Source: Monosiga brevicollis MX1 (taxonomy: Eukaryota). From it: a DNA stretch of 64,000 nucleotides. The notes under the pieces were generated by a model. It did no database searches. It was not told where the DNA came from and saw nothing but the letters and a program-made list of their open reading frames with translations. Made by a program: the position numbers and the translations under genes. The stretch lies in the NCBI RefSeq assembly GCF_000002865.3, contig NW_001865056.1, positions 294,455-358,454 on the forward strand, in the 5' to 3' direction. Positions 26,513 through 64,000 of the stretch are shown one piece after another (the stretch's first letter is position 1; every line of letters starts with the position of its first letter).

Positions 26513-27056
26513 NNNNNNNNNNNNNNNNNNNNNNNNNNNNNNNNNNNNNNNNNNNNNNNNNNNNNNNNNNNNNNNNNNNNNNNNNNNNNNNNNNNNNNNN
26601 NNNNNNNNNNNNNNNNNNNNNNNNNNNNNNNNNNNNNNNNNNNNNNNNNNNNNNNNNNNNNNNNNNNNNNNNNNNNNNNNNNNNNNNNNNNNNNNNNNNN
26701 NNNNNNNNNNNNNNNNNNNNNNNNNNNNNNNNNNNNNNNNNNNNNNNNNNNNNNNNNNNNNNNNNNNNNNNNNNNNNNNNNNNNNNNNNNNNNNNNNNNN
26801 NNNNNNNNNNNNNNNNNNNNNNNNNNNNNNNNNNNNNNNNNNNNNNNNNNNNNNNNNNNNNNNNNNNNNNNNNNNNNNNNNNNNNNNNNNNNNNNNNNNN
26901 NNNNNNNNNNNNNNNNNNNNNNNNNNNNNNNNNNNNNNNNNNNNNNNNNNNNNNNNNNNNNNNNNNNNNNNNNNNNNNNNNNNNNNNNNNNNNNNNNNNN
27001 NNNNNNNNNNNNNNNNNNNNNNNNNNNNNNNNNNNNNNNNNNNNNNNNNNNNNNNN
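26513..27056. other. Assembly gap (N run)
   Basis: Run of N; followed by (CT)n. Confidence 1.
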
Positions 27057-33711: not shown

Positions 33712-34126
33712 NNNNNNNNNNNNNNNNNNNNNNNNNNNNNNNNNNNNNNNNNNNNNNNNNNNNNNNNNNNNNNNNNNNNNNNNNNNNNNNNNNNNNNNNN
33801 NNNNNNNNNNNNNNNNNNNNNNNNNNNNNNNNNNNNNNNNNNNNNNNNNNNNNNNNNNNNNNNNNNNNNNNNNNNNNNNNNNNNNNNNNNNNNNNNNNNN
33901 NNNNNNNNNNNNNNNNNNNNNNNNNNNNNNNNNNNNNNNNNNNNNNNNNNNNNNNNNNNNNNNNNNNNNNNNNNNNNNNNNNNNNNNNNNNNNNNNNNNN
34001 NNNNNNNNNNNNNNNNNNNNNNNNNNNNNNNNNNNNNNNNNNNNNNNNNNNNNNNNNNNNNNNNNNNNNNNNNNNNNNNNNNNNNNNNNNNNNNNNNNNN
34101 NNNNNNNNNNNNNNNNNNNNNNNNNN
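33712..34126. other. Assembly gap (N run)
   Basis: Run of N; followed by (CT)n. Confidence 1.
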
Positions 34127-58566: not shown

Positions 58567-60365
58567 ATGTCGAGTCAACTAGCCGAGGACGTGCGCGAAG
58601 AAGAATTCGAGGAGGATGTAGCGGACGAGGCTGAGGGTGAAGAGGAGGACGCGCCCACCAGCGACGCAGGCGCTGCCGATGGCGATCAAGACGAGAAGGA
58701 AGAGGATGCAGAGGAAGAGGAAGAAGAGGAAGAAGAGGAAGAGGTATGCTCACGTGAACCCACTCACACAGCCCACGTGCTCCCGTGTCGCATGCATGCT
58801 GATCATTCTCTTCCCTGCGTCAGGCTGAGGAAGTGGTGGCTACTCGGGACGATGTGGCTGGCACCTTGGACCTTTTGGGTCGAACAGCCGATGCCCTTGA
58901 ATTTGCTTTCATTCGTTGCCGTCTGCTTGATCGGTGCGTATGGGCGTGCATGTGTGTCGAAGGGGAAGGGGGTACCGCTTCCTCACGACGCTGCCTGCTT
59001 GGATGTTGTCTCGTCATTATGCGTCGTCACAGCGCGGTGACCGACGTGGCCGTACTGGCCGAATTTAAGCATCTTCAAATTCTGGTAAGAAAGTTGCCGT
59101 CGGCGCTTTTCAGGGGCTCTCTTCGAGTGCGCCAGCTTGAACTTTATCGCCATAGAGATGATTGACGAGGTCTGTTTGCTTTTTTTCTTGATTACAGGAG
59201 CTGAATGGCAACGATCTGACAACTTTGCAGCCCTTGGCGTCACTCAAGTACCTTACCAGTGTCACAGTTCGCAATAATCGTCTCAAGCAGCTGCAGCTAG
59301 GCGAGATGAAATATCTGCAACGCCTGGACATCAGTGGTGCGACATGGAATGCTCATCCGCCTGGCCCCGCTCACACCGAAAGCCACCTTGGCTCACATTT
59401 ATTGTTTCACCCTGACTCTGGCAGGTAATCACATCAAGAACCTGGATGAGCTCAACACACCAAGTTTGCGCTACCTGGATGCGAGTACCAACAGCATCAG
59501 GGCGCTGGGATTTGCCACGCAATTGCCTGCCCTCGAACACCTCAACATATCAGAAAACAAGTCGGTTCCTACTCGCACATCACCCACGGCTGGCTAAACT
59601 TGTTGAAAGCCCCTTTGGCCTGATGAGATTGTTCGTGTTGGTGCATCGTGACGAGCGAGCACCCGAGCCTCACCCCAGCCACCATCCCACTGTTGCAGGC
59701 TGCGGGCATTAGACACCCTTGATCACCCGCGGTTGGCTGAACTCGAGCTGTCCGGGAACGAAGTGGGTAGCCTGCAGTTTCTGGGTGATCTTCCAGCTTT
59801 GACCACTCTGAGTGCCATGGGCAGTCATCTCGAGGTGAGTATATCTGCACCCGACGCCTATGTTTGAACCGACGTGTAAATCAGAGTGTGGCTTGTCCGT
59901 TCATCTCGTCCGCGTGTTTGTGGTGCTGGTGACGTTCATAGTCCATCGAGCTGGACACGACACTGCCCAACCTGACAACACTGCATCTGGATGACAACAA
60001 CTTTGCCGACCTGAACATTCTCAAGGAGCTCAGTGTGCTGTCCAGCCTGGCACACCTGTCAATGAGCGGCAACTCGTGCGCGGAGGAGGGCGATTATCGT
60101 GTGGAAGCCTTGGTCGCTATCCAGGGCCTCAAGACATTGGACGGCGAGGGTTACGATTCAGAGGATCGCGATGAAGCGCGCAACGTAAGATGTCGGGTTT
60201 TTTTCTTGTTGTCACTTGATTCTGTGTCATTTGTGCCAGCCCTCTTTTGAATACGCGATCGTGTTGAGCTGTGACTTGTTTATGCGCATGAATTCTTCTC
60301 ACATGAACCTTGCACCGCCTGGGCAATTCTTGTAGCTGCGGCAATCACGGCTCGAGCAGGCATAG
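58567..60365 (+). CDS. LRRC23: Leucine-rich repeat protein 23 (axonemal radial-spoke-associated)
   Basis: Acidic N-terminus, then LDLLGRTADALEFAFIR, LRRs (HLQILELNGNDLTTLQPLASLKYL; EMKYLQRLDISGNHI; LPNLTTLHLDDNNF) and LRR cap GNSCAEEGDYRVEALVAIQGLKTLDGEGYDSEDRDEA; same layout as animal LRRC23. Confidence 0.8.
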
Positions 60366-60414: not shown

Positions 60415-62897
60415 TCAGGCTTGACGATGGAAGGCAAACAGCAGCTGCGAAGGGCGGATAAGAGAATTGAGAGAACACGCAGTTGTCAGTGAAACGCTTC
60501 GTCCACATCTGCGGTGCCCTGCATGATCTGCGGCCCCACATTCACGTGCAATGGGAAAAAAAAACCCCCTGCTCCTTCACTCGAGCCGCGCCAACCCCTC
60601 TTCCCGTTGCCCTGAGTTACCAACTTGGTTGTTGTCAAATAATTCATTAAAATGCAGTTCAAGCTCCGCTTCTGTTTTGCCCACCTGCATGGTCAAGCGT
60701 CAGCAAAGAAGTCAGACAGAGATAGACATTGGCGAGCAAGTGGGGCGGAAAAAAAAACCCCAAACAGCCGTTTGCCCATCGCTGGCGTACCAAGGGATTG
60801 CTCTTGTACGAATCTGGCCGCTGATGCATCTCGCACGTCAAGCCTGGGGTGGTGCGGAGCTCTTGCACGAGTTCCCGGGCACCTTGGCTGCAGAATTGGG
60901 CAAGCATATGTCCGGCGCATTGAGCAGATGAGGAAGGATAGGCAGACCAAATGAGCGTGATATCAGGTGCCCCGCCAACCCCTCAAAAAAAAAAAAAGAA
61001 AAAAAAAAAAGGTTGCTCGCAATGAGGAACATTAGATGAAGACGAACCGCTTGCCCCCAGAAACATAGTAGAAAGTACCACCAACGGGTAGAAGGGCCCG
61101 GATGGTGTTGATAAGCGGCTGGACAAGCGCGTTGTCATAGATCAGGTCACAGCCGAGGAGAACGTCAAACTGTTGGTCGACGGCAACGTCGGGGTCAATG
61201 CGATATGTCTCAGGCTTGGTCCAGTCCAAGCAATGAACGGCGGCACGGCTGGCCATGCTATTGTTGTCTCCGTTGCGTTTGACATTGGCCCGCAAGTTTT
61301 CAAGCGTAGGCTCAAACACGTCGGTCATCACCACCTGGTGTAGACAAGGGCCAACGTCATGAGAACATAACGTCGAACGAATGCTCAAAAGGCGATCCAA
61401 GAGCGACACGCGGCTTCGTGACATACCTGTTTAGCGTCTGAATAAGCCAGGGTGGCTAGCGCAGGGAGACCGCATCCTGCACCCAGCTCACACACCCGCT
61501 TGCCATCAAGTTCAGGGGCCAGGTCAACGATCCAGTATGCCATGACCAAGGATGCTGCCCAGATTTGAATGCCCGTCGTGTCATCTTCAGCTCGCTTGTC
61601 AAACACCTGTGCAAAAAGAGGCCAGACAATCCAGACCGGAGTGGGGGACACAGGCAGCAGAGGGAGGAGGAAGAGGAAGAAAAGCGTCAGTTGATTAGTT
61701 GGTGACATGGTGTGTACACTCTGCGTGGCTTCAAAACAACCCACCTTGCCGAACCAGGAGGTGGCAATCTCGTCAACGTGAAGGGGGGGCGTGTCCGGTT
61801 TGAAGCACATGACGTGTTCGTATTTTTGCACCACGTTGGGGTCGACACTCAGTCTCAGTTCCCTCACCACTTGCCCCCTGGACCGCAGCATCCGGTTGAC
61901 CACCCTTCTTTTCTAGCTGCTTGGCACTGGGGTGCTCAAGAACCATCTGCAAAACATCTTTGTCCTCAACGTTGAAGGCCTCGGACACACAGCTCTTGCC
62001 TAAAGCGGCCGCGGGAAGGTGGCGTTGTGAGATCGATCCACGGGATGACTCTACAAAAACGAAAAAGTTATTAACACACCAAAACTGTTGGTGGCCAAGA
62101 CGTCTACTTGCTCAAACCCATCCAGCAGCAGCCGAACCATGTCCACGGCCTAGCGTTTGGAAAAAATAAAGTAACATTTAGATGACCGGTAAGAACAGGC
62201 TTGGTGGAAGAGTTGATATCACGTTGGGTCGGAACGGGGCCTCGGTACGGCCAGAGCGCCGGGCAGGAGGATTAACCTTGTTGGTAATGGCCCAGTGCAG
62301 AGGGGTGTTGCCACTATCATTGGCTTTGAAATGGGCGCCGCGCTCCATGAGTGCTTGAACGCAATCCAGATGCCCATTGGCGGCAGCCAGATGCAGGGCT
62401 ACAATTACAAGACGACACGGGCCCGAGGGGGGGGGGCGCAGCCAAGAGGCGCGGTGAGTGAGCAGGCAAGCTGAGCAGGAGGGCAGTGGAGGTGATGACC
62501 ATGCTTCTTGAACAGGCTACCAAGCAGCAGGCGCTCTAGATGCAGACGACAAGACGACAGGAAGGGGGTGGGAGTGGGGGGTAAGACCCCCCAAAAAGCC
62601 TTTTGCAGGCTGATATCACGAACCAGAGTTGCCAAGGTCGTCAGCAGCATTAACGTCCACGCCATGTTGATCTAGCCAAGCCACCAAGTCCTCAAGTTCA
62701 CCATAACTAGAGGATAATCACAGCAGGCCACAGTGACAGGTCGTGAGACACATCCAGGACAAGAAGGTTGACAAGCTGACTGCCCATGGTGCTCAAAAGC
62801 TGGGTTGAACCTACCGTGCACACAACTGCATCTCGAGCACCGGATCAAGAGGCTCCTCCTCCTCCTGCAGGGGGGCCTGTTCTTCGGGTGCCGCCAT
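60415..62897 (-). CDS. Ankyrin-repeat (Yar1-like) plus class I SAM-dependent lysine methyltransferase (Methyltransf_16) fusion protein
   Basis: N-terminal MQLCAR..ELEDL..VDVNAADDLGN/.LHLA.ANGHLDCVQALM..NDSGNTPLHWAITN..FGKSCVSEAF; C-terminal TGIQIWAASLVMA, VCELGAGCGLP, VVMTD, LRANVKRN, LDW, LGCDLIYD. Confidence 0.83.
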
Positions 62898-63393
62898 TGC
62901 TCCAGGCACCTTGTTCTCTTATAACCTTGACCCAACCGTCCACTGAAGCACGTATTATGTCGAACAAACGCCTCACGATCCGCCTTCAAACTATATCGTC
63001 GCCTCACGAGTCCAGGGAAAAGGCACACCCAAAAGGAGTCCGAGTACGCGCGCGCGCTCAGCGAGAGCAGAAAAAAAAAAACGCGCTCAATCTCAATCAG
63101 CCCATGTGCCAGTCCCCAAAAGTCTGACAATCACATTATGTCAGACGATCCACCTGACGCAACGCCTGACAAACTGCCATCGGCTTTCAAGCCGTTTGCT
63201 CAAAGGCCACACCTCGTCAGAAACTTCCGAGTGCGCGAGAACAAAAGAAAAAAAAGTATAAGACAGAGAGAGAGAGAGAGAGAAGAGAGAGAAGCTCATG
63301 TGCTCTCATTTTATATTGTTACAGTGAGTAACTAACAAAAGAATGAGAGAGAGAAACGAGAGAGAGAGAGACAGAGACTGAGCGAGGCTTCAA

Positions 63394-63410
63394 ATGGCAG
63401 CGCCTGCGAA

Positions 63411-63441
<31 letters not shown>

Positions 63442-63852
63442 GCCTTCTGTTGTATCGAGCTGCCTTTTGCTCTTTGTGCCGTTGCATTTGTCTTGGTGTT
63501 TGGGAGATTGGTTGGAACGGGGAGGGGCTCGGCTTGGTCTACTGGCTGCAAGTGAGAGGCGGTTTCTTGCAGCCCGTTCTCGAAACCGCGTACCGTTGGG
63601 TCTCTCCGTGATGGGATGGGCTCGTCTTGTTGACGTGCTGGGCTGGGTGGGGCCTTGTTGCATGTCTTGCAAGTCCAGGGAACACGCCACACAGTGTGCA
63701 TGCTTCATCGGTTCATTTTCAAGCTGCCTCAGACTCACCGCCATTTCAACCAACTCTTCGTTGCATGTGGTGTCTGCTCTTGCTTTACAGTTTGTGCGTT
63801 TGACCACCACCATGGCCATGGCGCTGCGCACTCTCCGCTCTGCCTCGATGAA
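63394..63852 (+). CDS. 5' end of a probable secreted protein (continues beyond the window)
   Basis: ATG after a (GA)n tract: MAAPAK-L10-AFC with (CTG)9 encoding the signal peptide; phase-compatible exon FCAFDHHHGHGAAHSPLCLDE ending at a gtaagc donor. Confidence 0.4.
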
Positions 63853-64000
63853 GGTAAGCTTGTGCATGCAGCCCGGCTCGGATTGGAAAAGCACGGCAAG
63901 AGCAGTGATGGCGATGGCCCGACCACCTGCTGGAGCTGGATTCATCGGGGCGAGAAACGAAGGAATGGGTTGAGCTTTTTTTGGGAAGGCAAAGGCCCAC

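Follow-up and report, generated by a model that had tools for sequence, protein, structure and literature searches.

A single gene on the minus strand of the window analysed here, a 64,000-nucleotide stretch of the Monosiga brevicollis MX1 genome, encodes a protein that joins a four-repeat ankyrin domain to a family-16 seven-beta-strand methyltransferase. An earlier note on this DNA, written from the sequence alone, had read the gene as a Yar1-like ribosomal-protein chaperone domain joined to a protein lysine methyltransferase and had treated the fusion as a one-off. It is instead one member of a wide, ancient, and apparently uncharacterised protist family, which already sits in databases as ankyrin plus Methyltransf_16. 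Both domains are known, as is the architecture under automatic database names; the fusion is real and conserved, and uS3 is an attractive candidate client for it. No description of this ankyrin–methyltransferase family or of a Yar1–methyltransferase fusion was found in searches of the openly readable literature, and the family is not described in the available portions of PMC3547847, PMC10238732, PMC3153492, PMC9118731, and PMC13518913.

Splice signals and reading frames resolve the locus into a spliced eukaryotic gene of ten exons running from 62897 to 60415 on the minus strand, with a start codon at 62897 and a stop codon at 60417-60415, limits that match the earlier coordinates exactly. The nine introns all have GT-AG borders and measure 80-225 nt. 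The coding part of exon 1 (62815..62897, minus strand, like all the exons) holds the start codon, an acidic leader, and the first helix of ankyrin repeat 1; its joint to the next exon (62706/62815) is seen in RNA runs X4 and X8, and RNA contigs reach upstream to 63081 and 63035. Exon 2 (62624..62706), with RNA joints at both ends, supplies the remainder of repeat 1. Exon 3 (62277..62398; Pfam Ank_2, E 4.2e-10) encodes repeat 2 and the beginning of repeat 3, and exon 4 (62080..62149) encodes the end of repeat 3, both again with RNA joints. Repeat 4, the entire linker, and the first methyltransferase strands all lie in exon 5 (61745..61999), which holds the domain junction and is covered by a single RNA piece, 61742-61998, with one gap. 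Exon 6 (61427..61606), identified by its profile match (Methyltransf_16, E 4.4e-6) and by conservation, carries the DTTGxxxW motif and SAM-binding motif I (ELGAGCG), and exon 7 (61048..61334; E 1.7e-9) carries the post-I TD, the DW, and the post-II DLIY motifs. The C-terminal part of the methyltransferase follows in exon 8 (60791..60887), which is missing from the public gene model and is supported by RNA joints and by alignment with homologs. A helix conserved in the family occupies exon 9 (60625..60684), on the same two kinds of evidence, and the last strand and stop codon occupy exon 10 (60415..60444), whose joint 60444/60625 is present in X4 and X8. All of the ankyrin and methyltransferase motifs quoted earlier are present.

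The reading frame as assembled is broken. With its introns removed, the assembled coding sequence is 1267 nt long (3n+1); the ankyrin frame passes the EHPSAKQLEKK stretch and then meets a stop at 61775-61773 in exon 5, while the next frame is the one that encodes the methyltransferase. The earlier statement that the ankyrin region continues into the enzyme without a stop is thus false for the sequence as given, where a frameshift had been crossed unnoticed. The frameshift is an assembly error, and the product is one 421-residue protein. Four of 24 listed RNA runs (X1, X3, X4, and X8) were examined, X1 and X8 coming from one study and X4 from another. One base at 61847 (61847..61847, a feature with no strand assigned) is missing from all three runs that cover it, X1 as a continuous, unspliced sequence and X4 and X8 as spliced ones; X3 lacks coverage of 61847 and the domain junction and is uninformative there. 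In every other letter X1, X4, and X8 are identical to the assembly. Without the extra base, the coding sequence is 1266 nt and a single open frame. All nine predicted introns are seen as spliced joints in both X4 and X8, and in each of these runs a single record (1432 and 1374 nt; both are assembled contigs rather than long reads) carries exon 1 together with methyltransferase exons. Eight of the nine joints are supported at the depth of that one record per run, and exon 1 and exons 5-7 are among the pieces listed for it. The single transcript and single protein assumed by the earlier note are in this way borne out, on the corrected frame.

Taken at face value, the assembled sequence suggests two separate genes, a pseudogene, or a programmed frameshift: The coding length is 3n+1, a stop stands in exon 5, and the public model consists of the methyltransferase alone. 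This reading is hardly credible now, and the RNA already refutes it, given that base 61847 is missing from every covering run, including the unspliced one. The location of the domain junction inside a single exon argues against two genes, and full-length orthologs align over the entire protein (Salpingoeca rosetta, 47% over 453 columns). Two narrower candidates were rejected on the same material. A hidden intron in exon 5 can be drawn on paper, where many GT/GC-AG pairs restore the frame, but the RNA is one piece with a one-base gap; for programmed frameshifting or RNA editing, the base is missing from the unspliced run too. The sole database protein from the locus, MONBRDRAFT_10114 of Monosiga brevicollis (232 residues), skips from exon 1 to late exon 5 and stops in intron 7. 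It lacks the ankyrin repeats and the C terminus because of the one wrong base, and the fusion is scored as absent in surveys built on that public model.

Several features of the neighbouring DNA accompany the gene. A convergent gene at 58567-60365 on the plus strand has an acidic N terminus and exons that look by eye like leucine-rich repeats, and its stop lies 50 nt from that of the fusion gene. Its spliced contig reaches at least 60444, over the last exon of the fusion gene, so the 3' ends overlap. An unspliced contig of 240 nt (60415-60654) runs across the last intron in both X4 and X8 and is either the 3' UTR of the neighbour or a product of intron 9 retention with a different C terminus. 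At 63319-63999 on the minus strand, a 226-codon open frame that contains Cys/His pairs and a run of glutamines enters from the end of the window and is probably the last exon of an upstream gene. The window also contains two assembly gaps (N runs), at 26513-27056 and 33712-34126, of 959 bases in all.

The methyltransferase domain (60415..61828, minus strand; residues about 177-421) belongs to the Methyltransf_16 family, as the earlier note had recognised. The Pfam profile matches exons 6 and 7 (E of about 4e-6 and 2e-9) with 27 and 38.1 bits, where the curated cut-off is 21, and all seven full-length homologs scanned score 78-100. Structural comparison used a model of the homolog P0013 (420 aa, 40% identical to the Monosiga protein) built from a 50-row alignment. 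In the model (mean pLDDT 91.7, pTM 0.66), four pairs of helices are followed by a linker of low confidence and then by a methyltransferase of seven strands. The first 10 Foldseek rows for it are family-16 enzymes or are listed under such entries, and the best matches in the structure search are FAM86A/EEF2KMT (Z 23.2), METTL21A (21.6), and METTL21D (21.5), with CaM-KMT similar. Profile searching gave a similar order (CaM-KMT 100 bits, EEF2KMT 96, METTL21B 77). Identity to the solved family-16 enzymes is 15-23% over the Foldseek and structure-search matches of P0013 taken together and 18-23% in the structure search, and automatic database names for the family disagree, "EEF1A lysine methyltransferase 3" in some cases and "Calmodulin-lysine N-methyltransferase" in others. 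The protein is a family-16 enzyme without a clear orthologue among the single human members.

The catalytic motifs are intact. Across 151 homologs D213, T215, G216, W220, E244, G246, G248, D269, W302, D327, and Y330 are 95-100% conserved; within this set, E244, G246, G248, D269, D327, and Y330 are 99-100% conserved and are present in the Monosiga protein. The last two of these belong to the post-II motif (DxxY); the role of this motif is treated in the available part of PMC10238732. Family membership makes it very likely that the enzyme is active on protein lysines. The opposing reading, that the fold, in the whole family or just in Monosiga, is inactive and acts as a scaffold that binds SAM, draws on residue 195. 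This position (exon 5, corrected protein) is Asp in Monosiga in place of a 97%-conserved Arg (146 of 151 homologs), with letters that the reads confirm. Set against the SAM-binding and post-II residues, all kept in the Monosiga protein and in 95-100% of the 151 homologs, an inactive fold is very unlikely.

The four-repeat ankyrin domain (61920..62840, minus strand; residues about 20-146) was delimited by the homolog model, the structure search, and conservation, and it is the less diverged half of the protein: Median identity among homologs is 43% for the ankyrin domain versus 36% for the methyltransferase, and the ankyrin distances are smaller. Several of its residues are near-invariant across 151 homologs (E22 87%, R28 99%, Y29 85%, N63 96%, W91 97%, N95 79%, E126 79%, F128 94%). 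By the general ankyrin consensus, these positions vary in generic ankyrins and form the partner-binding face. A face this constant points to one conserved partner. The domain is acidic, with a calculated pI of 4.39 for residues 1-152 and 4.56 for the whole protein, a feature not specific to Yar1. The linker that follows (61829..61919, minus strand; residues about 147-176) is variable and likely flexible. Only 3-7 of its 26-30 residues are identical to each of five homologs, it has low pLDDT in the P0013 model, and the span from A145 to H181 ranges from 15 to 125 residues in the 151 homologs.

The survey of the fusion across eukaryotes that the earlier note had called for shows that it is conserved. 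Searched against 1.8 billion representatives, the methyltransferase half had 5565 matches, of which the best 150 (149 non-self) were examined. In 82 of these 149, 130 residues or more precede the enzyme, and 79 of the 82 carry the same ankyrin domain; 90 of the 149 carry at least part of it. The other 59 mostly begin where the enzyme begins or within it, or else are more distantly related enzymes; these ankyrin-less matches may be fragments or true single-domain forms. Of 7994 candidates scored in a profile search, 429 reached E 1e-30 or lower, and the Pfam families Ank and Methyltransf_16 are both present in every one of the best 120 of the 429. The named carriers belong to choanoflagellates (Salpingoeca rosetta), oomycetes (Pythium, Lagenidium, Aphanomyces, Saprolegnia), diatoms (Seminavis, Cyclotella), Parmales (Tetraparma), and a chrysophyte, and two Atlas clusters with the same architecture have Apicomplexa as their commonest phylum. 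Animal, fungal, and land-plant names are absent from the best 120 of the 429 matches, most of which are unnamed.

The two halves have diverged together. Ankyrin and methyltransferase distances correlate over 140 of 152 aligned proteins with a Spearman coefficient of 0.46, a value inflated by near-copies among the 140, and the highest of 500 permutations reached 0.11. For 97 of the 140, the nearest methyltransferase neighbour lies within the three nearest ankyrin neighbours. Domain trees were built from 48 fused proteins chosen by the authors, to which the ankyrin tree adds 17 of 23 stand-alone forms. Oomycete, chrysophyte-containing, and Tetraparma groups recur in both trees. The Monosiga protein groups with Salpingoeca in the methyltransferase tree and not in the ankyrin tree, which has 128 columns, 25 of 62 forks left open, and poorly supported deep branches. 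The spread of the fusion, the correlated distances, and the recurring tree groups together argue that it is old and mostly inherited as a unit. The separate phylogenies proposed earlier are in line with joint divergence, and the ankyrin tree contains no labelled Yar1.

Stand-alone ankyrin forms also exist. In a search of short proteins, 23 of 48 matches are a complete ankyrin domain without the start of the enzyme, and most have acidic tails. Of the 17 placed in the tree, eight are interspersed with fused proteins and the other nine cluster together with weak support. Some stand-alone forms may be cut gene models; two of them end in tails that match by eye. The repeated occurrence of such forms shows that the two domains can part, which counts against a model in which they work together.

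Whether the ankyrin domain is Yar1 was approached from several sides. Its motifs in the Monosiga protein appear to resemble those of the yeast protein, as the earlier note had it. The P0013 model superposes end to end on Yar1 (4bsz_B) over 137 residues (rmsd 2.1, Z 18.9, 31% identity). Within the best 50 rows, Yar1 has the most identical residues of about 27 natural ankyrins (about 42 versus at most about 39), a ranking by the author's own count with a small margin and with P0013, 40% identical to the Monosiga protein, as the query. It comes second to myotrophin V-1 (32%) in percent identity among the same natural rows, and by Z it ranks 42, below many designed and natural ankyrins. A stand-alone relative matches Yar1 residues 100-149 in register, weakly (E 0.06). 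Other searches did not single Yar1 out. It is not among the best 50 Foldseek rows for the P0013 model, and the repeat 3-4 stretch of a close fused choanoflagellate-like homolog has no PDB match at E up to 10, Yar1 included. The name Yar1 is attached to none of the 48 matches in the short-protein search and to none of the other sequences returned. PDB sequence searches order their rows by the sum over repeats, and designed or long ankyrins take up the best 60; Yar1 is not among these, which is uninformative. An Atlas search with the ankyrin part returned generic clusters; plant (148 aa) and basidiomycete (203 aa) clusters, not named Yar1, are among the structural neighbours. A single-sequence model of the stand-alone P0274 (mean pLDDT 57.5) matched Yar1 out of register (Z 7.5) and was discarded. 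As Yar1-like features, the four repeats, the acidity, and the acidic-tailed stand-alone relatives hold up; the structural match leaves Yar1 not clearly ahead of other ankyrins.

Yar1 has four repeats with unstructured extensions, and its concave surface binds residues 14-29 of Rps3 (uS3), according to the available text of PMC4740875. The site adjoins the import signal, and importin competes for it, as set out in the portion seen of PMC5425276. Eukaryotic uS3 was collected from 116 loci, and in the 29 sequences aligned the N-terminal helix and the basic stretch are nearly invariant; no match to uS3 was found in the viral collections scanned. Acidity is common in this class of proteins, with a mean pI of 4.26 for dedicated chaperones (PMC13034042, in part). 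On balance, the ankyrin domain is somewhat more likely than not a Yar1 orthologue, which would bind uS3.

These elements suggest a fused chaperone-methylase, in which the ankyrin domain docks uS3 and the tethered enzyme methylates that same client, a model that is plausible though short of probable. The client docked by the four-repeat domain would be a conserved one, and the N-terminal helix of freshly synthesised uS3, which yeast Yar1 binds, is the most likely candidate; the tethered family-16 enzyme would methylate a lysine on the held client before it enters the ribosome. If the client is bound, it would in fair likelihood also be the substrate of the enzyme. Candidate lysines, inferred from uS3 alignments, would be those of the invariant basic N-terminal stretch by the Yar1 site and two invariant lysines of the N-domain. 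In favour of the model are the single spliced frame, the conserved fusion, the correlated divergence, the intact motifs, the near-invariant ankyrin face, and the end-to-end match to Yar1. The methylation record is less favourable. Counting against uS3 lysine methylation, the portion seen of a yeast methylation table lists Rps3 only with Arg146, modified by a SPOUT enzyme (PMC10265986). As a weak point in the same direction, uS3 is absent from the ribosomal proteins in the available part (six places) of a Plasmodium lysine-methylome table (PMC5071865). The accessible text of a Toxoplasma ribosome preprint makes no mention of uS3 methylation (PMC13419753).

Two further readings keep the protein intact and change what it does. 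The ankyrin domain might dock some other conserved client (a translation factor, calmodulin, a chaperone, or a ribosomal protein other than uS3, for example), with the likeness to Yar1 being generic or due to old paralogy. Yar1 does not stand out structurally, the nearest solved enzymes (EEF2KMT, CaM-KMT, and METTL21A-D) have similar scores, and the automatic names disagree. Fungal Acl1 combines a Yar1-like fold with another client, so the anatomy does not name the client. Against this stand the end-to-end four-repeat match with the highest identical-residue count among natural rows for Yar1 and the stand-alone acidic-tailed forms, which resemble a chaperone rather than part of an enzyme, and a different client is possible but somewhat doubtful. 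Alternatively, the ankyrin domain could be a uS3 chaperone while the enzyme acts elsewhere, the fusion ensuring co-expression or co-location in ribosome biogenesis, not channelling. The linker length (15-125 residues), the loose relative placement of the domains in the P0013 model (its pTM being 0.66 with a mean pLDDT of 91.7), the eight of 17 stand-alone forms among fused ones in the tree, and the 59 of 149 methyltransferase matches (best of 5565) without ankyrin, some perhaps truly so, would all fit such uncoupled domains. However, both opisthokont and SAR lineages have kept the fusion, its halves diverging in correlation, and this speaks for a functional link; many of the partial forms may also be cut gene models. 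This arrangement is judged unlikely.

The dock-and-methylate model has counterparts among known systems. On the ankyrin side stands Yar1 (PDB 4BSZ), the dedicated uS3 chaperone of yeast, which is likewise acidic, shares four ankyrin repeats end to end with P0013, and has its counterpart in the stand-alone acidic-tailed relatives of the family; it lacks an enzyme domain, however, and its Z against P0013 is no higher than that of other ankyrins. On the enzyme side, EEF2KMT/FAM86A, CaM-KMT, METTL21A-D, and METTL18 are family-16 seven-beta-strand methyltransferases, a family to which the fusion protein is assigned by Pfam scores above cut-off and intact motifs. The fusion protein differs from them in adding an N-terminal ankyrin domain, as well as, in oomycete members, a MYND finger. 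The FAM86 domain of EEF2KMT is an N-terminal substrate-docking domain that confers substrate specificity (PMC10285254, in the part available), and it is to this domain and to the Bcp1–uL14–Rkm1 system that the model is likened. In the latter, one nascent ribosomal protein is protected jointly by its dedicated chaperone and by a lysine methyltransferase, as described in the portion seen of PMC11248248. The parallel is with the fusion as a proposed model, whereas Bcp1–uL14–Rkm1 is experimentally shown and consists of separate proteins with a SET-domain enzyme and a large-subunit client. The earlier view that a coupled chaperone and methylation system had no characterised example therefore needs amending, since this one exists, though not in a single chain.

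Other likenesses are more partial. Rmt2-type arginine methyltransferases also combine ankyrin repeats and a class I methyltransferase in one chain (Atlas clusters), and yeast Rmt2 methylates the ribosomal protein Rpl12 (PMC10265986, in part), but they use a GAMT-like domain (PF27704) outside family 16 and have an arginine target. Fungal Acl1 is acidic with four N-terminal ankyrin repeats but is a uL1 chaperone, reported as fungi-specific, without an enzyme domain (PMC13034042 and its preprint, in the sections available). Toxoplasma PCKMT is an apicomplexan protein with ankyrin and methyltransferase domains, but it has a SET domain, TPR, and a mass of about 175 kDa, and its architecture is unrelated (PMC13518913, in the part seen).

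A wider reading can be offered tentatively. In choanoflagellates, stramenopiles, and alveolates, Yar1 would be chaperone and methyltransferase in one chain: It would capture uS3 as it is made and place on it a lysine methylation not yet described, for example within the import signal that adjoins the chaperone site, and so set the time at which uS3 passes to importin or to the 40S precursor. The stand-alone Yar1 of fungi and plants would then be a reduced or unfused form. If true, this would assign a substrate and a pathway to an orphan methyltransferase family that occurs in apicomplexans, oomycetes, diatoms, and the closest relatives of animals, and would predict a new ribosomal-protein modification. 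The protection that chaperone and methylase give uL14 as separate proteins would here have its single-chain counterpart. Even if the client is not uS3, the near-invariant ankyrin face can serve as bait to find the right one.

The searches also turned up other domain arrangements around the same modules. P0255, P0261, and their relatives form a stand-alone ankyrin group with a common N-terminal extension. In the oomycete members P0164, P0166, P0168, P0176, P0180, and P0223, the MYND zinc finger is inserted inside the methyltransferase domain. An arthropod Atlas cluster of 61 members combines ACBP, ankyrin, and Methyltransf_16, and Rmt2-type proteins of plants, diatoms, and fungi are found with ankyrin repeats in the Atlas as well. 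P0131 is a SelR–Methyltransf_16 fusion, and P0020 contains six tandem Methyltransf_16 domains in 1923 aa.
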